The translations under genes and the position numbers were made by a program. The notes beneath the pieces were generated by a model. That model worked only from the letters and a program-made list of their open reading frames with translations, was not told the DNA's origin and ran no database searches. A stretch of 64,000 nucleotides of DNA, taken from Parcubacteria bacterium RAAC4_OD1_1 (GTDB taxonomy: Bacteria; Patescibacteriota; Minisyncoccia; Phycocordibacterales; UBA9973). Each line of letters opens with the position of its first letter. The first letter of the stretch is position 1. This document shows, piece by piece, positions 1,261-45,767 of the stretch. The DNA is taken from contig AWSN01000001.1 of assembly GCA_000505065.1 (NCBI GenBank), forward strand, positions 487,772-551,771, in the 5' to 3' direction.

Positions 1261-2112
1261 TTATTTATTACCTTTAGCTTTACCAACTTTTCGACGAGAA
1301 ACAATCCACATATTTGAATATTTCTTTGGTGTTCTTGTTTTTTGTCCTTTCCCTGTTGGTTTACCCCATAAGGATTTTGCTCTACGAAGACCACGTCCTT
1401 GGCGTCCTTCACCTCCACCGTGTGGGTGATCAACTGGGTTCATTACAGATCCACGAACAGTAGGGCGGATACCCTTCCATCGTGAGCGACCAGCCTTACC
1501 AAGATTTTGAAGTTTGTAATCTGAATTTGAAACTTCACCAATAGATGCCCAAGCACTCTCTGGAACTTTACGAACTTCAGTAGATGGCATTTTGATATTA
1601 GTATAACCAAGATCGTTTGCAACTACCTGGCCATAAGTCCCTGCACCACGGACAAGTTTTGCTCCATTTCCTGCTTTGATTTCAATATTGTAAACGAATG
1701 TTCCAACTGGAATCAAGCGAAGTGGAAGTCTGTTTCCAATAGTAAGAGGAGCTTTTTCACTAACGATAAAGGTATCTCCTGGCTTAACTGATTTTGGTAC
1801 AATCACATATTTCTTCACTCCATCTTTATAGACCGCAAGACCTATAAAAGCATTTCTATTTGGATCGTATTCAATAGAAGTTATTGTCGCAGGAATATCT
1901 TTTTTTGTATACATAAAGTCTACTTCACGATAAAGTCTTTTATGTCCACCACCTTTGTGTCTAGTTGTGATTCTACCTTGATTATTCCTTCCGACAGCTC
2001 TCTTGAACCCATAAGTCAAAGACTTTTCTGGCTTCTTTTTTGAGAGAACTCCACGGAAAGATACAGTGCTTTGATTTCTTCTTGATGGACTTGTAGGATT
2101 ATAAGTTTTCAT
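1261..2112 (-). CDS. rplB: 50S ribosomal protein L2
   Basis: 283 aa. The conserved MNPVDHPHGGGEG motif is present, with a K/R-rich C-terminus. Confidence 0.9.
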   Translation of the reverse strand: MKTYNPTSPSRRNQSTVSFRGVLSKKKPEKSLTYGFKRAVGRNNQGRITTRHKGGGHKRLYREVDFMYTKKDIPATITSIEYDPNRNAFIGLAVYKDGVKKYVIVPKSVKPGDTFIVSEKAPLTIGNRLPLRLIPVGTFVYNIEIKAGNGAKLVRGAGTYGQVVANDLGYTNIKMPSTEVRKVPESAWASIGEVSNSDYKLQNLGKAGRSRWKGIRPTVRGSVMNPVDHPHGGGEGRQGRGLRRAKSLWGKPTGKGQKTRTPKKYSNMWIVSRRKVGKAKGNK

Positions 2113-11753: not shown

Positions 11754-12509
11754 CCAGATAGTGGTTTAACCACTATCTGGAAGATTTTCATCTTCTAGTA
11801 AGGAAACTTTTCCTCTTTCTTTTCTAATAATTTCTACAATTTCCTCTGAATGTTGTTTAAAATCTGAAATACCCTTAAAAACTTCAAGAATTCTTAAACC
11901 CTCTTCTTTCGAAACAATATTAAAATCATTATTTTCATATTCATTGTCACTAGCAAGAATAAGATCTTTTAAATCTTCTGGGATATCATGAACTTGATAA
12001 TTTTTATTTACATATCCAATAATTTTATTAAAATAATTTTCATTACCCATCAATTGAGACTTAAAAGTTCCCTGAAAAAGCGATCCGGAGCGAGAATTTT
12101 TTACATTAAAATAGTAAGTATAAGCTCCTTGTAATTTCTGCATAAATTTAGCTATTCCTCCATCTACATTTTGTTTCAAAACAAAATGAAAATGATTTGG
12201 ATTTAAACAATAAGCAACAACTAAAACTAATGGTTTATCCCCAGATAGTGGTTTAACCACTATCTGGGATTTTTTTGTCTTTCTTAAGTTTGACAAACTC
12301 ACTATTTTTTCTATTTTATTAAATTCTTTTATACTTTCAATAAATCTAAATAAATCACTCTTATCAGAAAAAATGTTTCTCTTGTCAACCCCCCTATTGT
12401 AAATATGGTAATATTCTCCATTTAATAAAGGTTGTTTTCTTAACATGTTCTTATTATATCATATAATCAAATCTACAGATAGTGGTTTAACCACTATCTG
12501 TAGATTTGA
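11754..12509 (-). mobile_element. RAYT paralog 1 unit bounded by P1 palindromes (ccagatagtggtttaaccactatctgg)
   Basis: P1 copies lie at 11754-11780 and 12241-12267 (internal), and an extended 43-nt perfect palindrome lies at 12467-12509. Confidence 0.6.
11766..12446 (-). CDS. IS200-like HuH tyrosine transposase, REP-associated (RAYT-like), paralog 1
   Basis: YHIYNRGV near the N-terminus and a HuH motif in CLNPNHFHFVL, then AYTYYF. The gene is flanked by palindrome P1 copies, one copy is internal, and P1 supplies the stop codon. Confidence 0.7.
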   Translation of the reverse strand: MLRKQPLLNGEYYHIYNRGVDKRNIFSDKSDLFRFIESIKEFNKIEKIVSLSNLRKTKKSQIVVKPLSGDKPLVLVVAYCLNPNHFHFVLKQNVDGGIAKFMQKLQGAYTYYFNVKNSRSGSLFQGTFKSQLMGNENYFNKIIGYVNKNYQVHDIPEDLKDLILASDNEYENNDFNIVSKEEGLRILEVFKGISDFKQHSEEIVEIIRKERGKVSLLEDENLPDSG

Positions 12510-12660
12510 TTAAGTATTGCATAAATTAGATTCTTATAGTAACATTCTATATGTAACAGTCCGTTTTCAAACCGGGCTTTTATTTTTCTTAAATGTCGAA
12601 TTTAAGAATAACAATTTAATAACAATTTAATAAAAAGGTCTCTTGTTTTTATTGTATTTT

Positions 12661-13968: not shown

Positions 13969-14001
13969 TACTAGTCACTAGAAACTAGTCACTAGAAACT
14001 A
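13969..14001 (+). promoter_or_regulatory. ACTAG-repeat leader motif upstream of hppA (tandem actagtcactagaaa x2), preceded by a TATACT -10-like box
   Basis: actagtcactagaaactagtcactagaaactaa ends 5 nt before the ATG. Confidence 0.55.
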
Positions 14002-14006
14002 ATTGT

Positions 14007-19179: not shown

Positions 19180-19207
19180 TCACTAGAAACTAGCCACTAG
19201 CAACTAA
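19180..19207 (+). promoter_or_regulatory. ACTAG-repeat leader motif upstream of clpP
   Basis: The sequence is tcactagaaactagccactagcaactaa. Confidence 0.55.
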
Positions 19208-22078: not shown

Positions 22079-22164
22079 TCTTTTCTTTTATAAAGAACTG
22101 ATTAAAGAAAAACCACTCTATTCTATCCGTGAGTGGTTTTTCTTATTGTAATTTATAAACGAAA

Positions 22165-22264
22165 ACAAATAATCTTATAAAAGGGGCTTTTGAGTGCGAC
22201 GGCACGAAAACTGAGCAAATTTCTAATAAGAAATTTGTGTACCCTTTTATAAGATTATTTGTTG
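22165..22264. repeat. ~100-bp intergenic element copy 1, bounded by a 22-bp inverted repeat (aacaaataatcttataaaagggg / cccttttataagattatttgtt)
   Basis: The core gcgacggcacga...gagcaaatttctaataagaaatttgtgt is shared with the copy at 30124-30226. Confidence 0.7.
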
Positions 22265-22286
22265 AAGTTATTTTTTAAAAAATATT

Positions 22287-23036
22287 TTATTCAAGCATCA
22301 ACAATGCCAACATTGAAATTATACCAAGAGAAATAATTAATATTTGAATTATTGAATGTTTTATATTTTTCGTCTTATGAAGTTCTGGGATAAGATCAGC
22401 AACAGCTATATAAATGAATCCTCCAGCCGCAATAGGCATAAACCAAATAGATACTCCTTCTATAATATTTCCAAAAATAAAAACAACAATAAGACCTAAA
22501 AAGGAAGCAGAAGCTGATAAAAAATTAAACATCAAAGCTTTTTTCTTTGAATAACCAGAATGAATGAGTACAGCAAAGTCCCCTATCTCTTGTGGAATCT
22601 CGTGAAGTATAACAGCCAGAGTTGTAGCAATACCAAGAGGAATACTTACAAGAAAGCTTGCTCCAATAATTGCTCCATCAATAAAATTATGAAACCCATC
22701 TGTAAAAAGTATCAACTTCCCTACCGGATGCACATGACCTTCTTCTTTGTCTTCGCCATGATGATGCCAATGTATAAATTTCTCTATTATAAAAAATAAT
22801 ATTATTCCGAAAATAATAAAAATACCGACAAGATCTATTTTTATATTACTCTCCATTATTTCTGGAATAATATGAATAAAAGCATCACCTAAAAGTGCCC
22901 CTATCGCAATACTAATAAAAAAACTAATATATTTTTTTAAAACATTTTCTTTTAAAGAAAGAAAAAGAATTCCAATAAGAGAAACAAGACTTACAAACAA
23001 AACAGCAATTGTTCCATATAAATAATTTATTGTCAT
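22287..23036 (-). CDS. ZIP family metal (zinc) transporter
   Basis: The HEIPQEIGDFAVL motif and His-rich loop HWHHHGEDKEEGHVH fit a ZIP transporter. Confidence 0.75.
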   Translation of the reverse strand: MTINYLYGTIAVLFVSLVSLIGILFLSLKENVLKKYISFFISIAIGALLGDAFIHIIPEIMESNIKIDLVGIFIIFGIILFFIIEKFIHWHHHGEDKEEGHVHPVGKLILFTDGFHNFIDGAIIGASFLVSIPLGIATTLAVILHEIPQEIGDFAVLIHSGYSKKKALMFNFLSASASFLGLIVVFIFGNIIEGVSIWFMPIAAGGFIYIAVADLIPELHKTKNIKHSIIQILIISLGIISMLALLMLE

Positions 23037-23097
23037 AATTTTATTATAACATATGAGTCAAGAAACAATTTGATATTGTTTTTGATAATTTTGTCGG

Positions 23098-23115
23098 GGT
23101 GCCGGGAATCTCGTC
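23098..23115 (-). repeat. Orphan duplicate of the tRNA-Pro 3' end (gtcggggtgccgggaatc)
   Basis: The 18-nt segment is identical to 23241-23258 of the tRNA-Pro gene and sits ~125 bp from the tRNA. The flanking region does not fold into a tRNA. Confidence 0.7.
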
Positions 23116-23237
23116 CTACGGTCGCGGGTGCTTTTCCATCTTTGATAAGGAAAAGCCTTTCGATTCCCGAACGCAAGAGAAGCAATTCTCTTGCTCACCA
23201 CAAATTAAAAAACTCTCTTCTGAGAGTTTTTTAATTT

Positions 23238-23310
23238 TGTCGGGGTGCCGGGAATCGAACCCGGCTCTCGTGTTCCCAAAACACGGATACTACCGATATA
23301 CTACACCCCG
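23238..23310 (-). tRNA. tRNA-Pro (anticodon TGG); CCA not encoded
   Basis: The cloverleaf was folded by eye: acceptor CGGGGTG/CACCCCG, anticodon loop TTTGGGA, T-loop TTCGATT. Confidence 0.8.
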
Positions 23311-23351
23311 AAACTAAACATACAAACAAAATAAAATCAGTAAACCTGATT

Positions 23352-23424
23352 TGTGCGGGATAAGGGAGTCGAACCCTTCACCACAGTTTGGAAAACTGTT
23401 ATTTTACCGATAAACTAATCCCGC
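23352..23424 (-). tRNA. tRNA-Trp (anticodon CCA); CCA end not encoded
   Basis: Acceptor GCGGGAT/ATCCCGC, anticodon loop TTCCAAA, T-arm GGGTTCGACTCCC. Confidence 0.8.
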
Positions 23425-23466
23425 AATCATCATACCAATATAACAAATTTTTACCTTTTTATCAAA

Positions 23467-23883
23467 TCACAATATTATATTTTCTACTACTTTTACTCTA
23501 CCTAGTTTTTTATGTATATCAATATAAACAACCAAAAGGTCAAATTGCCATTCCCTATTCCCTACTCTATTACTTATGAGATAAGTTTCTACTATTCTTC
23601 GAAGTCTTTGCATTTTCCAAATATGCATATTTTCTTCTGGTCTACCTGTTTCAAACCCCCACTGTCCAGGCCTTGCCTGGACAGTGGGGGTAAATGAGAA
23701 TTGTTTTGATTTTACTTCAACAAAATATATCTTATTATCTTTTATTGCAATTATATCTATTTCTCCCCACTTTCTAGTGTAATTTCTTTCTAAAACAAAA
23801 AATCCGTGTTTCATAAGAAACCTACAGGCTAAATCTTCCCCAATTTTACCTATTTTTTGTGAATTTGAAGTAAAACTTTTCAT
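23467..23883 (-). CDS. yraN: YraN (UPF0102) family endonuclease carrying an in-frame P2 palindrome insertion
   Basis: GEIDIIA and VEVKSK motifs; the peptide PTVQARPGQWG is encoded by the 35-nt palindrome at 23656-23690. Confidence 0.7.
   Translation of the reverse strand: MKSFTSNSQKIGKIGEDLACRFLMKHGFFVLERNYTRKWGEIDIIAIKDNKIYFVEVKSKQFSFTPTVQARPGQWGFETGRPEENMHIWKMQRLRRIVETYLISNRVGNREWQFDLLVVYIDIHKKLGRVKVVENIIL
23656..23690. repeat. P2 palindrome copy (cccccactgtccaggccttgcctggacagtggggg), inside yraN
   Basis: A perfect 16-bp stem with a 3-nt loop. It is GC-rich within AT-rich DNA and open in all six frames. Confidence 0.9.
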
Positions 23884-24120
23884 AGTGTTTCACGTGAAAC
23901 ATTTTTAGGTGTTAATAACGGACAAATTCACCTAAAAATTGTACTTTACTAATAAAACCTTATTTATCAAGCTTTTTTATATTTTAGATATAAATATTTG
24001 AATTACAAAGTTTGTCTTTTATAAACAATACACACATACTTATCCACATAATCTATATTTTTAAAGGGTTTTTGGTGTGTATAAAAGACTAATAAAAGTC
24101 ATAATCTATAGTAGTAATTT

Positions 24121-24194
24121 TGTGCACCTGGAGGGATTCGAACCCCCAACGACGGTTCCGAAGACCGGTATGATATCCATTTCACTACAGGTGC
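24121..24194 (-). tRNA. tRNA-Arg (anticodon TCG); CCA not encoded
   Basis: Acceptor GCACCTG/CAGGTGC, anticodon loop CTTCGGA, T-arm GGGGGTTCGAATCCC. Confidence 0.75.
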
Positions 24195-24290
24195 ATATTT
24201 TATATTATACAATAAAATAATAATTTAACAAAACAAATTGCTTTTTGATTTAAAAAATATTATAATAAAAAAGTTATAAAAAATAATTTA

Positions 24291-24363
24291 GCGGTGTTGG
24301 TTTAGTGGTAGAACACGTCCTTGCCAAGGATGAGACAGGAGTTCGATTCTCCTACGCCGCACA
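24291..24363 (+). tRNA. tRNA-Gly (anticodon GCC); CCA not encoded
   Basis: Acceptor GCGGTGT/ACGCCGC, anticodon loop TTGCCAA, T-arm GGAGTTCGATTCTCC. Confidence 0.8.
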
Positions 24364-24368
24364 AATAT

Positions 24369-25922
24369 ATGGCTGATAAGCCAATTATAAACAACTCAAA
24401 AATCCCAAAATATGTTACACGTGTAACAGAAACCCTCGAAAAAGCTGGTTTTGAAGCTTTTCTTGTGGGTGGATGCGTCCGAGATCTTATTATAGGCAGG
24501 GAACCAAAAGATTGGGATATTACAACAAATGCCAAACCAAAAGAGATAATTCCATTATTTGAGAAAACTATATATGAAAATAAATTTGGAACAGTCGGTG
24601 TCTGTATTCCTAAAGAAATCCCCAAACCTAGTTTGGATATTTCATGCGAAACGGGAGACAAGGCTGAATATCATATAATTGAAGTAACTCCATACAGAAT
24701 AGAGTCTAAATATGATGATTTTAGGCATCCAAATGAAGTTAAATTTAGTAAAAAAATAGAAGATGACCTTAAAAGAAGAGACTTTACAGTAAATGCAATA
24801 GCGTATAGTATTTCTAAAGGACAACTTATTGACCTTTATAAAGGACAAGAAGATATAAAAGACAAAGTTATTAGGGCAGTGGGGGATCCAAAAGATAGAT
24901 TTACCGAAGATGCCCTTCGAATGCTTCGTGCTATTAGATTTTCAGCAGAATTAGACTTTTCTGTTTCATATGAAACAATAAACGCTATTTATGAGAATAA
25001 GAATCTTATAAAAAATGTATCTTTTGAAAGAATTCGTGATGAATTTACTAAAATAATAATGTCTTCAAACTCAGTTTCTGGAATAGCTTTATTGCAAAAG
25101 CTTGAATTACTTAAACATATAATTCCAGAATTAGAAGAGGGAATTGGATGTATCCAGGGTGGAGCTCATAAATACGATGTCTGGGAGCATTTACTCCAAG
25201 CCCTTGATCATGCTACAAAAAAGAATTGGTCTTTAGAAATAAGACTTTCTGCCTTGTTTCACGATATTGGAAAACCTAGATCTAGAAGAAAAGGGGTTAA
25301 AAAAGCCTATACTTTTTATGGCCATGAAGTAATAGGGGAAAGAATGGTGAAACAAATTATGGAAAGAATGAGATATTCTAAAGAAATAAGCGAAAAAGTT
25401 ATTAGTTTCACGAGAAACCATATGTTCTTCTCTGATACTGAAAAAATAACACTTTCTGCTGTAAGGAGGATTATTCAACATGTTGGTAAAGAAAATATCT
25501 GGGATCTTATGAAAGTCCGTGAGTGTGATAGGGTGGGAATGGCAAAAGCTGAAGCTCCATATAGACTTCGTAAATATCACGCAATGATAGAAGAAGCTCT
25601 CCGTGACCCAATATCCGTCAGCCAGCTAGCCATAGATGGAAACTATATGATGGGGGAGTTACACGTGAAACCAGGCCCCCGAATGGGCTGGATACTAAAT
25701 GCTCTCCTTGAAGAAGTCCTAGATGATCCAACCAAAAACAACAAAGAGCACCTATCAGAACTCGTGAAATCCCTTGATATGCTGGGCGATGCTGAATTAA
25801 AGACATTGGGAGAAAGAGGAAAAGAGAAGAAAGATAAACTAGAGAAAGAAGAAATCAAAAGGTTACATGTGAAACATGGGGTGAGCTCGGGTAAGGGACC
25901 TGAGCGCAAGACCGGAGCCTGA
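24369..25922 (+). CDS. cca: CCA-adding tRNA nucleotidyltransferase with HD domain
   Basis: The polymerase beta-type head GGCVRDLIIG...DWDITT is followed by an HD motif (LFHDIGKP). The ATG at 24369 is 6 nt after tRNA-Gly. Confidence 0.8.
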   Translation: MADKPIINNSKIPKYVTRVTETLEKAGFEAFLVGGCVRDLIIGREPKDWDITTNAKPKEIIPLFEKTIYENKFGTVGVCIPKEIPKPSLDISCETGDKAEYHIIEVTPYRIESKYDDFRHPNEVKFSKKIEDDLKRRDFTVNAIAYSISKGQLIDLYKGQEDIKDKVIRAVGDPKDRFTEDALRMLRAIRFSAELDFSVSYETINAIYENKNLIKNVSFERIRDEFTKIIMSSNSVSGIALLQKLELLKHIIPELEEGIGCIQGGAHKYDVWEHLLQALDHATKKNWSLEIRLSALFHDIGKPRSRRKGVKKAYTFYGHEVIGERMVKQIMERMRYSKEISEKVISFTRNHMFFSDTEKITLSAVRRIIQHVGKENIWDLMKVRECDRVGMAKAEAPYRLRKYHAMIEEALRDPISVSQLAIDGNYMMGELHVKPGPRMGWILNALLEEVLDDPTKNNKEHLSELVKSLDMLGDAELKTLGERGKEKKDKLEKEEIKRLHVKHGVSSGKGPERKTGA

Positions 25923-26326
25923 CGAGGCGAGGTGGGCTCGCGAGATTTTTCAACAGAAAAATACTTGTGAGTAGAAAATAGGGAAGAAACAAAACTCTTG
26001 AGACTCTCGAGGCAAGGCCTAAAGAGTTTAAGGTATTAAAAAATAAAAGAAGCGGGAACCAGAGGATCCCCGTTTCAAAACTTAACCTAACTAAACCAAA
26101 TTATGATTAAAGAAAAAATAAATTGTTCAAGTCAACACAAGAACAATTTAAAAAAGTGATTACTTATATTATGAACTTCTTATAAAATAAGTCAAGAACA
26201 GAAAACCCCGGAATAAAAATCTCCGGGGTGAAAACAATTAAACAATGTCAGAAAACAGAAAACTAGAAACAAAATAATTAAACTGTGCAATAAAGAACAG
26301 TTTAATCATTATAATTATACCTACTT

Positions 26327-27124
26327 TTATACTTTTATGTCAATCATTATCGGGCAATGGTCTGAGCCCATATAGTCAGAGAGGGTTTTAAAACTTTTTA
26401 CATTTTTAATAAAAGATTTATTGGTAAAAAAGTAATCTATCCTCCAACCGACATTCCTATCACGTGCTCTTGTTTTCTGATCCCAATAAGTATAGACATC
26501 TTTTTGGTCGGGATTTAAATATCGAAAAATATCTATCCAATTATTTTTTATTAATTTATCCATCCAAGCTCTCTCGATAGGGAGAAAGCCTGTGTTGTTT
26601 ACATTCTCTTTTGGCCGAGCGAGGTCTATTTCATTATGAGCAGTATTTACATCTCCAGTAAAAATTACATTATATCCATTCTTTTCTAGTTTATTTATAA
26701 ATTTTAAAAAAGCGTCATAAAATTCTAATTTATATTTTAATCTTTCTGGTTTTATGCCAGCATTAGGAAAATAACAATTGATTAAAGCTAATTTCTTACC
26801 TTTCCCACCAATGGGACTTTTATAATACAAAACTAAAGTCCTACCTTCATCATCAAATTTTTTAATTCCCAAACCATACTCAACTCTTTCTGGTTTTACT
26901 TTTGTATAAATAGCTACACCACTATAACCCTTTCGAAGTTTTGAATATGAAAAATAAGAATAATAACCCTTTAAATTCCTGGATGCTTCATCAAGTTGCT
27001 CTGGCTCACATTTTGTTTCTTGAAAACAAACCATATCTGGATTATTAAAAGCAAACAGGGGAGTAAAGTGTCCTTGTTTTATCGTCGCCCGCAATCCATT
27101 TGTATTCCAACTTATAATTTTCAT
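26327..27124 (-). CDS. xth: Exodeoxyribonuclease III (AP endonuclease)
   Basis: MKIISWNTNGLRA, FQETKCE and a C-terminal SDHCP motif fit the EEP fold. Confidence 0.85.
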   Translation of the reverse strand: MKIISWNTNGLRATIKQGHFTPLFAFNNPDMVCFQETKCEPEQLDEASRNLKGYYSYFSYSKLRKGYSGVAIYTKVKPERVEYGLGIKKFDDEGRTLVLYYKSPIGGKGKKLALINCYFPNAGIKPERLKYKLEFYDAFLKFINKLEKNGYNVIFTGDVNTAHNEIDLARPKENVNNTGFLPIERAWMDKLIKNNWIDIFRYLNPDQKDVYTYWDQKTRARDRNVGWRIDYFFTNKSFIKNVKSFKTLSDYMGSDHCPIMIDIKV

Positions 27125-27147
27125 ATTAATTATTATATAACTATCTA

Positions 27148-27996
27148 TTAACTATTCATTTCCTTAAATAATTCTTCTGATTCTTTTTCGGTTATGTCTA
27201 TTTTTTTAGAAATTTCCCATATAACCTTAAACTGAGAAGCCACCATATCAGCAAATTCTTTACTTTCAAGAATAAAACCAAAATTATCCTTTGGAGAAGA
27301 AATGCAGGCAACCTTATTTTCATAAATCCAATAACCCATAGAAAAATCTATTCCCTCTGGGGCAACTCTTATTTCCCTGAGAAAAACTTCGCCAGTCCCC
27401 ATAAATGGATAATCATTCATATCAATAATATGCTTTTCTGGCCAAATAACATTCATATAAATATTTCTTTTCACTCTTTCAATATTAAATTGTTTAAAAA
27501 ATTCTTCTCCAAAAACTTCAATAACAAGTTTAATTGGAATATAAGCTTTAGCTTCCATATTTCTGTAAAGAAGTATGTCTCTTAAAATATTCTGAACTTC
27601 TTTTTTGCTTTCAAATATCTGAAAACGGGGAACAGAGGTTGGTTTTAAACCTTTTTGAATTTCCAAAAATGCTTTTGTTATGACATCCTTAGTATCATTA
27701 ATATTTTTTATCTGTTCATCCAAGACCATATTTATCTTTTCTGCACTAGAAACTAAAAAAGTTTTTACTCCATCTTTTTGAGAATGAACAACTAAACCTT
27801 TTTCTTGAAGATTCTTTAGATAACCATAAAGAGATGGGCGAGAAAGGCCAGTCTTTATTGCAATTTTTCCAGCTGTTTGTTCACCGTTTTCTAGTAAAAA
27901 TAGGAAAGTTTTTATTTCGTCTTCTTTAATACCTATATTTATAAGTTTCTGGCTGAGCATATTTAATATTATATTCCTTAGCTTTTCTGTTGTCAA
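27148..27996 (-). CDS. TrmB-like HTH transcriptional regulator
   Basis: The N-terminal winged helix GEQTAGKIAIKTGLSRPSLYGYLKNLQEKGLV matches the TrmB family. Confidence 0.55.
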   Translation of the reverse strand: MTTEKLRNIILNMLSQKLINIGIKEDEIKTFLFLLENGEQTAGKIAIKTGLSRPSLYGYLKNLQEKGLVVHSQKDGVKTFLVSSAEKINMVLDEQIKNINDTKDVITKAFLEIQKGLKPTSVPRFQIFESKKEVQNILRDILLYRNMEAKAYIPIKLVIEVFGEEFFKQFNIERVKRNIYMNVIWPEKHIIDMNDYPFMGTGEVFLREIRVAPEGIDFSMGYWIYENKVACISSPKDNFGFILESKEFADMVASQFKVIWEISKKIDITEKESEELFKEMNS

Positions 27997-28072
27997 GATT
28001 GTACAACACCATTTACAATAGTTGACATAAATGCTATACTATGTTTAAGTTAAACTTTTAAAAAAATAAATC

Positions 28073-28444
28073 ATGAAAAAGTTATTGTTCTTCGTAATGG
28101 TATTAATGTCAGTTTGTGCTAAAGCACAAATATCTGACAAGAAAAATCATTTCTCGTCTTTCTCAGGAGGAATGATCATTTCAGCAAATAATTCCATTTC
28201 ATTTATGGGGTTCGTGGGACCAAAAGTTTCTGTAACCCTTAATGTTGCGAAAAATTTTAAGGCTGAAGTTGGAGTAAATGCTTTCCCGGGATTAGTTTTA
28301 AAACCAGAATTAAAACCAGGATTAGCGCTGGGGTCAACTATTACTTTAAAAAATAACAATTGGAAATTAAAACCAGTTGTAGGTGTTGTTCTTATTAAAA
28401 CCAAGGAATGGCAACCAATGTTGGGCTTGGGTTTCGTCTTCTAG
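28073..28444 (+). CDS. Small secreted hypothetical protein
   Basis: 123 aa with a signal peptide; it reads like a beta-rich small protein. Confidence 0.45.
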   Translation: MKKLLFFVMVLMSVCAKAQISDKKNHFSSFSGGMIISANNSISFMGFVGPKVSVTLNVAKNFKAEVGVNAFPGLVLKPELKPGLALGSTITLKNNNWKLKPVVGVVLIKTKEWQPMLGLGFVF

Positions 28445-28571
28445 CCGAAGGTTAGAGGAATAAAAATGAAAAGCGGTCGCTATGCGATCGCTTTTTTTAA
28501 TTACTGTGAAATTTCTTGTGCACCCCAGTAGTAGAGCAAAGCTCACTACGGGGCAAGCATCTCTTATTTTA

Positions 28572-29570
28572 TCACGACTTACTATGATATTTCTTATGTA
28601 TATCTTTTAATTGACGATCTGTAATATGTGTATATATCTGAGTTGTAGCAATATTCGCATGGCCAAGCATCATTTGGACCGAGCGAATATCAGCCCCATT
28701 AGAAAGTAAATCTGTTGCAAAAGAGTGACGAATCACGTGGGGGGTCACCTTCTTAGAAATTCCTGCAATAATTGCATATTGGCGAACAATCCTTTCTATA
28801 GAGCGGGGGGTAATTCTTCCTCCGTTACTGTCCAGGCCTTGCCTGGACTTATTATTTTTGGAATACTGAATAAATAATGGCTCATCCATATCTTTTCTAT
28901 TTTTCAAATATTCTCTTATTGCATCCTTGGCGCTATCTGAAAGGAAAACGACACGAACTTTTTCACCCTTTCCACGGATAGAGAATTCATCTTTTGATAA
29001 ATCCAAGTCCCTATTGAGTGAGCAAAGTTCAGAAAGACGAAGCCCTGTCGAGAAAAAAAGCTCCAATATCGCTTTGTCTCGTAAAGATTTCAAATTCCCA
29101 TAGGTCGGACCTAGGGTCTTATTATTTTTACTTTTTGCCCCTAGGTCCGACCTAGGGGAATTTTCCAAAGGTGCTTTTAAAAGCCTATTTAATTCATCAA
29201 CAGAAATAAGATCCAAAGACCTTTCTTTTATCTTTGCAAGCTCTATCCGATCAGGTGGAAGGGAAGTGATACCTCTTTTCATAAGATATTTAAGGAAAGA
29301 ACGAAGAGCAATAAGATGATAATTCTGAGTATTCTTCTTAAGAGTTGCTGATTGTTGCCCACGAACCTTAACCCCAGGCTGACGATTAAGAAAAAGACGG
29401 AATTCACGAATCTTGTCATCATCAATATCTTTTGGATCTGTTATTTTGGAAAAATCAAAAAACCTACTTATATAATGATCATAATTATTGACCGTTTTTA
29501 GACTATTTCCTTTCTCTATTTCTACATGCTCAAGAAATTCTCTTTTCAATTGCTCTAAATAAGATGCCAT
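28572..29570 (-). CDS. xerC: Tyrosine recombinase XerC/XerD-like, carrying two in-frame palindrome insertions
   Basis: HVIRHSFAT...LGHANIATTQIYTH in the catalytic region. P2 encodes SRQGLDSNGG, and a P3 pair encodes PRSDLGAKSKNNKTLGPTYG. Confidence 0.8.
   Translation of the reverse strand: MASYLEQLKREFLEHVEIEKGNSLKTVNNYDHYISRFFDFSKITDPKDIDDDKIREFRLFLNRQPGVKVRGQQSATLKKNTQNYHLIALRSFLKYLMKRGITSLPPDRIELAKIKERSLDLISVDELNRLLKAPLENSPRSDLGAKSKNNKTLGPTYGNLKSLRDKAILELFFSTGLRLSELCSLNRDLDLSKDEFSIRGKGEKVRVVFLSDSAKDAIREYLKNRKDMDEPLFIQYSKNNKSRQGLDSNGGRITPRSIERIVRQYAIIAGISKKVTPHVIRHSFATDLLSNGADIRSVQMMLGHANIATTQIYTHITDRQLKDIHKKYHSKS
28826..28849. repeat. P2 palindrome copy inside xerC
   Basis: The sequence is actgtccaggccttgcctggact. 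Confidence 0.85.
29098..29157. repeat. Pair of P3 palindromes (cctaggtcSgacctagg) separated by 19 nt, in frame inside xerC
   Basis: ccataggtcggacctaggg ... cccctaggtccgacctagggg. The core gacctaggtc recurs in the rpsO terminator at 30071-30100. Confidence 0.8.
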
Positions 29571-29770
29571 CCAATCATTGTATCACATACTTTAATGTCG
29601 GAAAACAAAATACAGAAGAGAGTTATTTTGCCCGCACACTTAATTTGGTGTAGCTTTTTGGTTCTGCTGTTAAAGTAATTTTGTAATATTGATATATTTT
29701 ATAAACATAAAAGATATTATTATCTAAATATTCTGAAAAAGCAGAACAACACCAAATTAAGTGTGTGGGC

Positions 29771-29799
29771 TTGCATTTTTTTGTAATATGTGATACTAT
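29771..29799 (+). promoter_or_regulatory. rpsO promoter TTGCAT-17-TACTAT
   Basis: It is embedded in the right arm of the xerC-rpsO inverted repeat. Confidence 0.5.
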
Positions 29800-29808
29800 A
29801 TAAGGGTC

Positions 29809-30069
29809 ATGTTAACGACCAAGCAAAAACAAAATATTATAAAAAAGAATCAACTTCATGATAAAGATACAGGAAGTCCTGAAGTTCAGATTGCTATTAT
29901 CAGTAAAAAAATTGATGAATTAGCAAGTCACCTTAAGACTCATAAGAAAGATAATCACTCTCGTCGTGGTCTTATAAAGATGGTTGCTGATAGAAGAAAG
30001 CATTTAAAGTATCTAGAAAAGTCAGACAAGGAAAGATTTGATATCCAAGCAAAAAAAATAAAAGCTTAG
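29809..30069 (+). CDS. rpsO: 30S ribosomal protein S15
   Basis: 86 aa with the motifs [15 protein letters not shown]...RR. Confidence 0.9.
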
Positions 30070-30070
30070 T

Positions 30071-30100
30071 AAAACATTCCGACCTAGGTCGGAATGTTTT
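30071..30100 (+). terminator. Terminator after rpsO (contains P3 core)
   Basis: The sequence is aaaacattccgacctaggtcggaatgtttt. Confidence 0.7.
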
Positions 30101-30123
30101 AGTTTGATATAATTAATAACGTA

Positions 30124-30226
30124 AATAAAATAGTCTCTGAGAAATGCCTTGCGCAAGGCGACGGCCCGAGCAGAGCAAATTTCTAGTAAGAAATTATGTG
30201 TGCATTTCGAAGAGATCTATTTTATT
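30124..30226. repeat. ~100-bp intergenic element copy 2 (MITE-like or small RNA)
   Basis: gcgacggcccgagcagagcaaatttctagtaagaaattatgtgtg, with terminal inverted repeats aataaaatagtctct / agagatctattttatt. Confidence 0.65.
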
Positions 30227-30282
30227 GGAGTTACAAAAAAAAGGGGGGTCGATAATTTTATAAAAAATAATTTTTAATATAT

Positions 30283-30926: not shown

Positions 30927-30960
30927 CCCCACTGTCCAGGCCTTGCCTGGACAGTGGGGG
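30927..30960. repeat. P2 palindrome copy, 5' UTR of pnp (12 nt before ATG)
   Basis: The sequence is ccccactgtccaggccttgcctggacagtggggg. Confidence 0.9.
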
Positions 30961-44088: not shown

Positions 44089-44859
44089 ACTGTCCAGGCC
44101 TTGCCTGGACAATATTTAATATATATAATAGATAATATGTCTATTAGACCTATCAAATTCGCACCAAATGAAAATTACCACATATACAATCGTGGTGTAA
44201 ATAAAATGAATATTTTTATAGATCATAATGATTATGATCGTTTTATGAAATTAATGTATGTATCAAATTCTACTACCAATAAAAAATTTACCGACATAGA
44301 AACAAGTCCAGGCAAGGCCTGGACACTAGAAAAAGATAGTGATTTGGTAGATATTGTTAGTTATTGTCTTATGCCTAATCATTTTCATTTTATTCTTAGA
44401 GAAAAAATTGAAAATGGCATAAGTATATTTATGCACAGACTCTCTACTTCTTACTCTATGTATTTTAATAAAAAATACGATCGTAATGGAGCACTTTTCC
44501 AAGGAAAATTTAAGTCAGAACATATAAATAATGACAATTATTTTAAATATCTATTTTCATATATTCACTTAAATCCAATAAAACTTATACAAAAAGACTG
44601 GAAAGAAATTGGAATAAAAAATATTGATGTAGCACAAAAATATCTTTTAAAATATCCCTATTCTAGTTTTTTGGATATAATAGAAAAAATTAACAGAATA
44701 GAGTCAAAAATAATAAATAAACTAAGTATTCCTAATTATTTTGGTTCTCCTGAAAATTTTAAAAAGGAAATTTTTGATTGGTTGATAGTTAAAATATGAA
44801 TATTAATAAAAATAAATTTAATAGTGTTAGGAATACTGTCCAGGCAAGGCCTGGACAGT
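44089..44859 (+). mobile_element. RAYT paralog 2 unit bounded by P2 palindromes
   Basis: P2 copies lie at 44089-44111, 44306-44324 (internal, encoding SPGKAWT) and 44835-44859. Confidence 0.55.
44136..44799 (+). CDS. IS200-like HuH tyrosine transposase, REP-associated (RAYT-like), paralog 2 (ORF track starts at TTG 44101)
   Basis: YHIYNRGV near the N-terminus, HuH in CLMPNHFHFIL, then YIHLNPIK and YPYSSF. P2 copies lie upstream, internally and downstream. Confidence 0.7.
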
Positions 44860-45767
44860 GGAAATATAAAGCCAAAAAGCATCTGGGGCAAAACTTTTTA
44901 AAATCTAAAGAAGCAATTAAAACTATATGTGATGCTGGAAAAGTAGAAAAAGAAGATATTATCTTGGAAATTGGCCCCGGGAAAGGGGTTCTCACTGAGG
45001 AGTTGCTAAAAAGAGGGGCAAAAATTCTAGCAATTGAAAAAGACAATGATTTAATTAATTTTTTAATAGAAAAATTTGAATCTTTTCTTCCGTCCACACC
45101 GGGTATGGACATAGATACAAAAAGGTTAAATATAATAAATGAAGATATTTTGGATTTTGATATTTCAAAATATGGACTTTTAGATAAAAAATACAAAATA
45201 ATTGCAAATATTCCATATAATATAACAGGGGCAATAATAAAGAAATTCTTAAGTGAGATCAAAAATAAGCCTATTTTAATGGCTATTTTGGTGCAAAAAG
45301 AGGTTGCGGAAAGAATTGTTGCAAAAAACAGAAAAATAAATAAGCAAAAAACAGAAGCTGTCCAGGCCTTGCCTGGACAGTCCAGGCCTTGCCTGGACAG
45401 TGGGGGGAAGGAGAGTATATTGTCATTGAGTGTGAAAGCTTATGGAGATCCTAAATATATAATGAAAGTATCAAAAAAATATTTCTCACCAGCCCCAAAA
45501 GTGGACTCCGCGATAATACTTATAGATAATATTTCCGATAAAAATTTTAAAAACAATGATGAGGAAAAAACCTTTTTTGATCTAGTTCATGCTGGATTTA
45601 GTCATAAAAGAAAATTATTTATAAAAAACATAGAAAATTTAGATTACCAAAAAGAAAAAATTAAAAAAATGTTTGAAATATTAGAAATTGATAAAAAAAT
45701 AAGAGCAGAAGATATACCTTTTTATAAATGGATAGAAATGAAAGATTTTTTAACTACAAAAAACTAG
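44796..45767 (+). CDS. rsmA: 16S rRNA (adenine1518/1519-N6)-dimethyltransferase RsmA/KsgA carrying three in-frame P2 palindromes
   Basis: LGQNFL and EIGPGKGVLT motifs. The start ATG overlaps the RAYT stop (ATGA). One P2 copy sits in the N-terminal extension (TVQARPGQW), and a tandem pair sits mid-gene (AVQALPGQSRPCLDSGG). Confidence 0.8.
   Translation: MNINKNKFNSVRNTVQARPGQWKYKAKKHLGQNFLKSKEAIKTICDAGKVEKEDIILEIGPGKGVLTEELLKRGAKILAIEKDNDLINFLIEKFESFLPSTPGMDIDTKRLNIINEDILDFDISKYGLLDKKYKIIANIPYNITGAIIKKFLSEIKNKPILMAILVQKEVAERIVAKNRKINKQKTEAVQALPGQSRPCLDSGGKESILSLSVKAYGDPKYIMKVSKKYFSPAPKVDSAIILIDNISDKNFKNNDEEKTFFDLVHAGFSHKRKLFIKNIENLDYQKEKIKKMFEILEIDKKIRAEDIPFYKWIEMKDFLTTKN
45358..45407. repeat. 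Tandem double P2 palindrome inside rsmA
   Basis: ctgtccaggccttgcctggacag is followed immediately by tccaggccttgcctggacagtgggggg. Confidence 0.9.

Follow-up and report, generated by a model that had tools for sequence, protein, structure and literature searches.

Short intergenic repeats that fold into hairpins in transcripts are known from several groups of bacteria. REP (repetitive extragenic palindrome) sequences, together with the BIME and REPIN arrangements, are extragenic, lie at the 3' ends of genes in either orientation and in alternating clusters of subtypes, form hairpins in transcripts, produce no target duplication and are present in many copies. The ERIC (IRU) elements of enterobacteria and the Correia (NEMIS) elements of Neisseria are imperfect palindromes of about 100-150 bp, transcribed from intergenic positions in both orientations as long RNA hairpins. 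Correia hairpins are substrates of RNase III, and the orientation of ERIC influences mRNA decay. A long hairpin can also stand in an operon leader, as in the rpsO-pnp operon of Escherichia coli, where the leader hairpin of pnp is cleaved by RNase III. Orphan motifs filed in Rfam as 'Gene; sRNA' (LOOT, for instance) are defined by covariation, restricted to particular lineages, present in several copies per genome and of no known function. Here we describe an element that resembles these dispersed families in several of the traits just listed. It was found in two spacers, behind hup and behind rpsO, within a 64,000-nt stretch of Parcubacteria bacterium RAAC4_OD1_1 (contig AWSN01000001.1, positions 487,772 to 551,771), which we call the window.

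The Parcubacteria and other members of the candidate phyla radiation (CPR, Patescibacteria) represent a large share of bacterial diversity, and almost nothing is known of their non-coding RNA or repeats. The element belongs to a new and uncatalogued family specific to Parcubacteria, large, lineage-wide and multi-copy, which is a structured intergenic repeat or an orphan RNA motif with an unusual architecture. Its occurrence in many copies throughout the lineage, its strand-specific covarying fold, its placement at transcript boundaries and its repeat-like turnover are established by the data below. We favour, with a probability of about 0.55, a dispersed intergenic repeat of the REP/BIME kind whose conserved unit is a strand-specific RNA fold, and which would take part in transcript-end formation or processing, or in protein binding.

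Results

Two copies of the element in the window

Copy 1, behind hup, occupies 22158-22269 and copy 2, behind rpsO and ahead of the NYN-pnp genes, occupies 30118-30232, both on the plus strand. An earlier note on this DNA had placed two intergenic copies behind these genes, with a shared core, each bounded by its own inverted repeat and each just past a terminator, and our analysis agrees with it on these points. The core, GCGACGGCNCG-N(5-7)-GAGCAAATTTCT, has exactly two occurrences in the 64 kb, each on the plus strand, and none in 100 shuffled sequences. The inverted repeat of copy 1 is perfect over 22 bp, and the stem runs on through a GAA/GAA internal loop to AAC/GUU; the arms of copy 2 extend over about 24 bp (30124-30147 / 30202-30226), in which a GA/GA internal loop and a single bulged U interrupt the pairing, and the stem runs on through a 3x3 loop (GUA/GGA) to AAC/GUU. 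The predicted fold has a free energy of -42.7 kcal/mol in copy 1 (z -8.2 versus shuffles) and -38.1 kcal/mol in copy 2 (z -5.0). The parts of both copies, with their scores against the covariance model R1, are as follows.

22164-22185 / 22242-22263, plus strand: P1 of copy 1, prolonged by the outer stem AAC-GAA...GAA-GUU and enclosing a three-way-junction core at 22186-22241 (77.7 bits)
22189-22210, plus strand: P2 arm of copy 1, with UUU/AAA, tandem G·A at 22192-22193 / 22206-22207, 4-bp GUGC/GCAC and a GACG loop at 22198-22201
22215-22238, plus strand: P3 hairpin of copy 1, GCAAAUUUCU-AAUA-AGAAAUUUGU, with a G·U closing pair
30148-30201, plus strand: three-way-junction core of copy 2, enclosed by P1 with a GA/GA loop at 30139-30140 / 30209-30210 and a bulged U at 30216, and by the outer stem AAC-GUA...GGA-GUU (81.8 bits)
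30150-30172, plus strand: P2 arm of copy 2, with UGC/GCA, a bulged G at 30153, CA/GA, the stem GGC/GCC and a GACG loop at 30160-30163
30175-30199, plus strand: P3 hairpin of copy 2, GCAAAUUUCU-AGUA-AGAAAUU[A]UGU, with a bulged A at 30196

Aligned with each other, the two copies show a mean column identity of 81% over 156 columns, and the similarity extends outside the hairpins. Far from being confined to the AT-rich hairpin, as the earlier note had allowed that it might be, it also covers the G+C-rich P2 (GC-GACG-GC) and the flanks (AAC-GNA ... GNA-GUU). The hairpin of 7 bp described in that note is in fact a 10-bp stem, P3, with a bulged A in copy 2 and none in copy 1. The outer arms of the two copies have only AAA.AAAUA.UCU in common; the long-stem sequences differ, so that pairing has been maintained by two-sided changes.

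Consensus fold and covariation

The conserved unit is a three-way junction of P1, P2 and P3. In the commonest type, P1 reads AAAU-AGUCUUAUCAGAGGGG ... CCCUCUGAGAAGAGCU-AUUU, with about 15 conserved bp, a conserved bulged G and either an A·G mismatch or tandem GA/GA, and the 4 bp directly outside the modelled region are likewise conserved. P2 consists of 2-3 bp, a 1-nt bulge, tandem G·A and A·G, 4 bp and a GNCG tetraloop (mostly GACG); the P2b pairs covary in the alignment (GC, CG, UA, AU). P3 has 10 A/U-rich bp under an AGCA loop (variants AGUA, AAUA and AACA), with a bulged A seven pairs below it, and is prolonged toward the junction by A·G and G·U pairs. Beyond the unit, an outer stem continues for a further 10-25 bp and is different in every copy, total P1 length having a median of 30 bp and a maximum of 55 bp. 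A GNA/GNA loop is conserved in the outer stem of one subfamily, to which both window copies belong.

When the sequences were aligned with MAFFT, without structure, 91% of cells paired and 21 of the 30 pairs changed on both sides, compared with 34-49% pairing when the partners were slid by 1-3 columns. Among 94 distinct sequences, 92% of cells paired and 29 of the 30 pairs were compensatory; the slid controls gave 39-55%, and none of 500 shuffles reached the observed value. This larger alignment was fitted to the model and hence leans to it, so that the structure-free alignment serves as the independent check. In one member P3 is fully rewritten with loop and bulge retained (GCAAUCCGCC-AGCA-GGCGGAU[A]UGC), and a second rewritten P3 reads GGGCUUUCGU-AGCA-ACGAAAAGCCC. 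These results are evidence that the fold is selected as a single-stranded structure.

Size and breadth of the family

Model R1 was built from 15 sequences, with copy 1 excluded. It was searched against fetched genome and metagenome loci that carry or lack the element (labelled L002, L003 and so on). In species-representative genomes the strict core pattern matched 17 loci, all of them CPR: Nomurabacteria (three copies in one genome and two in another), Adlerbacteria, Paceibacterota, other Parcubacteria and two assemblies labelled Saccharibacteria. The flanks of one of the last two loci match those of a Parcubacteria locus at about 96% identity, which makes the label doubtful. A pattern for P3 only matched 96 metagenome stretches, and viral contigs scanned with both patterns gave no match. 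The covariance model search, which had been proposed in the earlier note, returned 127 matches at E ≤ 1e-8 on the fetched loci, 94 of them distinct, with further diverged copies beyond. Pattern scans and model together recovered about 150 copies; with these homologues, and a third, core-only match within the window at 25911-25968, the element can no longer be called a two-copy one.

The element is 95-130 nt long, non-coding and multi-copy, and no small open reading frame (ORF) is conserved in it (4 codons in the common type, no AUG in copy 1). It can be dense: one 9-kb contig (L067) has seven model matches, and the portions of a 457-kb contig that were sampled have at least eight copies. The window, both copies, a typical member and the 17 loci were compared with Rfam 15 at the gathering threshold, and no family matched the element; only tRNAs in the window and LOOT in one locus (L007) passed. 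At E ≤ 10, both copies and the typical member gave spurious long-hairpin matches only, far under threshold. The literature that we searched held no description of the element. The LOOT RNA (RF03000, 75.7 bits) lies at L007 7013-7132 on the minus strand, about 2.8 kb from a copy of the element, in a Patescibacteria genome.

Several other identities were considered and rejected. The stem bases GTTACAA and GTTATTT do not fit the RYYYAAC...GTTRRRY of integron attC sites, and the copies are solitary behind housekeeping genes. The core, inspected by eye, misfits the hammerhead consensus (CUGANGA...GAAA), and the hammerhead, twister-sister and other self-cleaving ribozymes were set aside with no Rfam match. 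Mimicry of a tRNA anticodon loop by the CUAGCAA loop was discarded, since variants close the AGCA loop with C-G.

Strand asymmetry

On the modelled strand of P1, G·U pairs outnumber A·C oppositions by 110 to 25, and A·G and G·A oppositions total 197. Among copies whose flanking genes share the direction of the element the ratio of the two is 27:8, and among those whose flanking genes have the reverse direction it is 35:4. With model R1, the complementary strand of copy 1 obtains just 13.5 bits. The conserved unit is a strand-specific fold of a single strand, most likely RNA. RNA is favoured over single-stranded DNA by the G·U and sheared G·A motifs throughout the fold, by an orientation that is unbiased relative to genes, and by the presence of the same modules in terminator-bracketed non-coding units beside tRNA genes.

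Borders of the element

As to its nature, the earlier note had suggested either a MITE (miniature inverted-repeat transposable element) or a small structured RNA gene. The structured fold is borne out by the compensatory pairs and by the excess of G·U over A·C on one strand, whereas the MITE is not. A classical MITE would be a deletion derivative of an insertion sequence with a DDE transposase, moved by cut-and-paste through its terminal inverted repeats, and the element does have the small size (95-130 nt), lacks a conserved ORF, was recovered in about 150 copies and has inverted repeats at its borders. Its terminal repeats, however, are not shared between copies: within one genome the arms differ in every copy around a centre of about 97-100% identity. 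In 97 copies, the longest direct repeats at the borders were distributed as in a shuffled-partner control, giving no target-site duplication beyond chance. Neither a transposase nor a related insertion sequence was present among the flanking genes of 19 copies, no genome-wide search having been made, and internal compensatory covariation and G·U asymmetry are not expected of a MITE. With no target-site duplication, no shared terminal repeats and a covarying interior, a classical MITE is hardly credible. The intuition of a mobile-like repeat was nevertheless right in spirit, given that the element is dispersed, gained and lost.

Turnover among related genomes

About ten metagenomic genomes keep the gene order of the window, at roughly 75-90% protein identity. 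In the S15-NYN spacer, the window, L030/L043 and L090 carry the element in one and the same orientation, with compensatory differences beside the junction; L048 has it inverted, L047 lacks it, and L041 has an unrelated long hairpin instead. In the hup-ZIP spacer, it has the same orientation in the window, L101 and L027, where the outer arms differ yet stay complementary; it is inverted in L108, and a second hairpin family takes its place in L093. Behind ClpP, L093 has the element and both the window and L027 have plain terminators, and the RuvB-RuvC spacer holds the element in L004 and is 5 nt long in L011. In most filled/empty pairs, unit and outer arms are present or absent together, which fits insertion and whole-hairpin deletion alike. 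A flip at one locus may reflect either recombination or template switching between the arms, or independent insertions into the same spacer.

Insertion into pre-existing terminator loops was considered as well. One case is suggestive, that of the ClpP terminator in L093, where the outer arms and flanks can be read as an ordinary terminator whose loop holds the unit, and L047 has one small host hairpin. Since most empty sites lack both unit and arms, this route is not established.

This turnover could also be that of a non-autonomous mobile DNA which moves as folded single-stranded DNA and is mobilised in trans by an HUH/Y1-type enzyme, in the manner of REPINs with their RAYTs or of IS200/IS605, the fold being the structure recognised by the enzyme. 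IS200/IS605 elements have no target duplication and no terminal inverted repeats, and the present element lacks target-site duplication and shared terminal repeats. The many copies, the intergenic 'safe' sites, both orientations, the inverted doublets and the presence/absence differences at the same spacer would all suit such an element, as would the other hairpin-repeat families in the same slots and the short REP-like palindromes in the window, and a one-strand asymmetry is expected of a single-stranded DNA intermediate too. On the other hand, no HUH/Y1 gene lies near any copy examined, nor a RAYT (Y1 transposase) gene in the 8-kb loci, no genome-wide search having been made. No gene-orientation bias is seen, though single-strand transposition that depends on the lagging strand should produce one if genes and replication run the same way. 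A conserved centre with variable arms is the opposite of REPINs, a core conserved over class-level lineages is unlike the species-specific REPs, and the terminator-bracketed units beside tRNA genes point to RNA. Taken together, we regard a single-stranded mobile DNA as distinctly unlikely.

The second family of long hairpin repeats (L093 3230-3330, L072 5850-5950, L041 2140-2270) has the arms AAGAUUGUUAAAAUUAU.../...AAUAAUUUUAAUAAUCUUGC and the centre GGGCCCCUUUGGGGUAAAG; in relatives it fills the same spacers (hup-ZIP, S15-NYN), and it is absent from the window. Another observation concerns the ruvB locus, where a conserved non-coding block of about 140 nt stands upstream of ruvB, directly after the element (L004 2620-2790 and L011 3585-3725). 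The block has no Rfam match and could be another RNA or a leader.

Placement at transcript boundaries

Copies lie in short spacers, typically 10-35 nt beyond a stop codon (or terminator), in either orientation. Relative to the element, both flanking genes run in the same direction in 21 cases and in the opposite direction in 26; they are convergent in nine and divergent in eight. The abutting genes are housekeeping genes, among them those of S15 (three genomes), S2, S9, L28, NusA, RecA, RuvB, GrpE, ClpP, trigger factor, SOD, FtsK and PilB. At about ten loci two copies are adjacent, 35-120 nt apart, and these are always mutually inverted and usually of different subtypes. An all-versus-all BLAST of the flanking ORFs found no protein family that is consistently adjacent. 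Readings as a retron, an IscB/TnpB-type or TIGR-Tas system or a toxin-antitoxin pair were excluded by this absence of a conserved neighbouring gene, and the architecture is also unlike that of TIGR-Tas guide arrays (PMC12045711).

In the window, the following features precede the two copies.

22107-22142, plus strand: intrinsic terminator of hup, upstream of copy 1, recognised by eye (not listed by the consensus scan), its stem kept in relatives
30070-30101, plus strand: intrinsic terminator of rpsO, upstream of copy 2
30108-30113, plus strand: TATAAT, a -10-like box between the rpsO terminator and copy 2, from sequence comparison

A U-run (AUUUUUU) follows copy 1, and ACAAAAAAAA, without a U-run, follows copy 2. 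Over the family, a position-wise profile shows 5' A-rich and 3' T-rich tracts 12-17 nt outside the unit, a modest signal with the polarity of a bidirectional terminator. This polarity, and a location right past stop codons in either orientation, might suggest an elaborate bidirectional terminator or mRNA-stabilising hairpin, in which the long stem alone matters and the core is conserved by recent common descent. The arms and flanks that read as a terminator in L093, and the plain terminators at the same place in the window and L027, would fit such a role. Both window copies already stand behind complete terminators, though, and copy 2 has no U-run; moreover, the compensatory changes in P2 and P3 and the non-canonical motifs conserved across distant lineages show that the head is selected. 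This explanation is therefore very improbable.

A box equivalent to the one at 30108-30113 (TATAAT or TATCAT) is found in relatives both with and without the element, and is probably the promoter of the NYN-pnp genes. As it is kept where the element is missing, copy 2 would belong to the NYN-pnp 5' leader. Copy 2 resembles the hairpin of the E. coli pnp leader in that it is a long hairpin between the rpsO terminator and the pnp-containing genes, past a -10-like box. The element is dispersed, however, following dozens of unrelated genes, and close relatives lack it in this spacer; it is not a regulator dedicated to pnp.

Two short-read (Logan) assemblies of the window locus, L002 and L003, stop 30 bases past the rpsO stop codon, in or just past the terminator palindrome that precedes copy 2. 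Such a break is expected beside repeated sequence.

A third relative and larger multi-module forms

A third relative in the window and several larger ones combine modules of the same kinds.

25911-25968, plus strand: third relative, core-only, 26.3 bits with model R1, E 9e-5 window-wide
~25877-26040 of the window: larger structured region around the third relative
L087 2930-3090: larger relative
L014 ~1560-1900, minus strand: larger relative
L017 5010-5235: larger relative, bracketed by terminators, beside tRNA genes

The third relative contains a P2-like arm (ACC-G-GA-GCCU-GACG-AGGC-GA-GGU) and, with an AACA loop, a P3-like hairpin; the ORF of the CCA-adding enzyme, whose stop codon it overlaps, appears over-extended into it. 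The region around it has a fold z of -5.4 and is 78% identical over 90 nt to L017 6538-6626, with no Rfam match. As a whole, 25877-26085 (plus strand) is a structured non-coding region of about 200 nt past the CCA-adding enzyme gene, with one P2-like and one P3-like module and more hairpins, and may be a larger RNA assembled from the same modules. The rod-plus-junction shape, and a resemblance to GCAAGNCC in this region, led us to consider 5S, SRP, RNase P, tmRNA and 6S RNA, which were rejected with no model match and the wrong copy number. In the larger relatives, extra hairpins of both kinds produce four- or five-way junctions or multi-module RNAs of 200-330 nt. At L017 6341-6727, a tRNA-like start (acceptor and D arm) is followed by a chain of P2/P3 modules to the contig end, which may represent an interruption of a tRNA gene or a tRNA-like fusion.

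These forms bear on the possibility that the copies are free-standing small RNA genes, each with its own promoter and an end at the hairpin or U-run, whose 95-125-nt rod-plus-head RNA would act in trans, for example by protein binding or titration through its GNCG and AGCA modules, like multi-hairpin sponge RNAs. The multi-module versions hold 2-4 P2 and P3 modules per terminator-bracketed unit, the strand-specific constraints are independent of host gene direction, copy 1 has its U-run, and orthologous copies persist with compensatory changes amid unalignable spacer. A scan for -10/-35 elements also gave matches at equivalent places ahead of both window copies, but at shuffle-level frequency and not conserved among orthologues. 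Copy 2 lacks a U-run and lies between a promoter-like box and the next gene, and the frequent loss, gain and inversion between genomes with about 80% protein identity would be unusual for small RNA genes that are needed. In our judgement, free-standing genes are rather unlikely.

Other repeats in the window

A separate long hairpin is present at 29630-29770, between a divergent Xer-like recombinase gene and rpsO, with 22-bp arms that are 95% complementary, an AT-rich centre and a fold z of -9; it is not matched by the element model. Inside the recombinase ORF, at 29092-29163, lies a 25-bp inverted repeat with 96% complementarity (AAATTCCCATAGGTCGGACCTAGGG / CCCTAGGTCCGACCTAGGGGAATTT), and a perfect 24-bp palindrome with a 1-nt centre (TAATCAAATCTACAGATAGTGGTT / AACCACTATCTGTAGATTTGATTA) occupies 12464-12512. 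The G+C-rich palindrome CTGTCCAGGC-nnn-GCCTGGACAG is found at 23662-23684, 30932-30954, 44090-44112, 44836-44858 and 45358-45400, with 16 half-sites against 0.8 expected, and has a REP-like look in this AT-rich genome. Another repeat, CACTAGAAACTAG, occurs four times against 0.04 expected (window 13976-14002, 19181-19193 and 27744-27756), and copies of the similar cactagaaactag flank a terminator in a related genome (L056 3950-4080).

Discussion

The REP/BIME-like reading with an RNA unit allows a mechanism to be proposed. The element would be transcribed within neighbouring transcripts, copy 2 in the NYN-pnp leader and copy 1 past the hup terminator, with the U-run after it. There it could act as a long-hairpin module for transcript ends or processing, as a terminator extension, an exonuclease block or an RNase III site. 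The conserved head may dock a conserved protein, and the copies would have spread through a trans-acting activity other than a cut-and-paste transposase.

Several observations weigh against this reading. Half of the copies run antisense to their neighbours, and a conserved promoter was not found, the spacers upstream of the copy 1 orthologues, for example, being unalignable; this leaves the production of the functional strand unexplained. Both window copies follow complete terminators and are not needed there as such. Neither a partner protein nor a mechanism of spreading was identified. Conservation of P3 is overstated, since many of the aligned sequences are related and were fished by a fixed P3 pattern. 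Taken alone, the copy-specific outer arms give a ratio of G·U to A·C of 24:14, which is not significant, and with so weak an excess the strand-specific constraint resides in the conserved unit; the complementarity of the arms could be kept by a DNA-level process, template switching in quasi-palindromes, instead of RNA selection. The preference for RNA over single-stranded DNA is deduced solely from the usage of G·U and G·A and from the terminator-bracketed relatives.

A more specific version would be a new kind of genetic entity in bacteria, a dispersed repeat whose selected unit, an RNA three-way junction, is bound by a conserved Parcubacteria protein, which spreads and flips by a hairpin-based process unlike that of MITEs and REPINs, and which its hosts, with their very small regulatory repertoires, would have co-opted as a general transcript-boundary module. 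Such spread might proceed by insertion into palindromes or their growth, or through an RNA or single-stranded intermediate. In this complete form the proposal is unlikely.

The element supplies a covariation-supported fold that is absent from Rfam and is present in many copies per genome of about 1 Mb, where core housekeeping genes end. Should it prove to be an RNA module that has a protein partner, it would represent a so far unrecognised level of control over transcript ends in minimal genomes; should it prove to be a mobile structured repeat, it would offer a new model for the origin, flipping and retention of hairpin repeats. There are practical effects as well, given that assemblies break at the element and that ORFs may be over-extended into it, as that of the CCA-adding enzyme is into the third relative.

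Compared with known systems, the P2 loop is reminiscent of a kink-turn, with a C-G pair, tandem sheared-type G·A and A·G and a Watson-Crick helix in the same strand arrangement; a kink-turn has a 3-nt bulge and most copies have a bulge of 1 nt, so that we speak of a resemblance only. In Correia elements the 26-bp terminal repeats are conserved and a TA is duplicated, two features that are missing here, and a covarying three-way-junction head is known from neither ERIC nor Correia. The REPs are species- or genus-specific simple palindromes, 20-40 nt long and with conserved stems, whereas in the present element a branched head of about 60 nt at the tip is conserved and the outer stem is variable. 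The pattern of REPINs, with conserved arms and a variable loop, is reversed. Unlike REPs, the element has a core that is common to class-level Parcubacteria lineages and carries compensatory changes. With the Rfam orphan motifs it shares a definition by covariation, a restriction to one lineage and several copies per genome; its very long, copy-specific closing stem and its repeat-like turnover are unusual among them.

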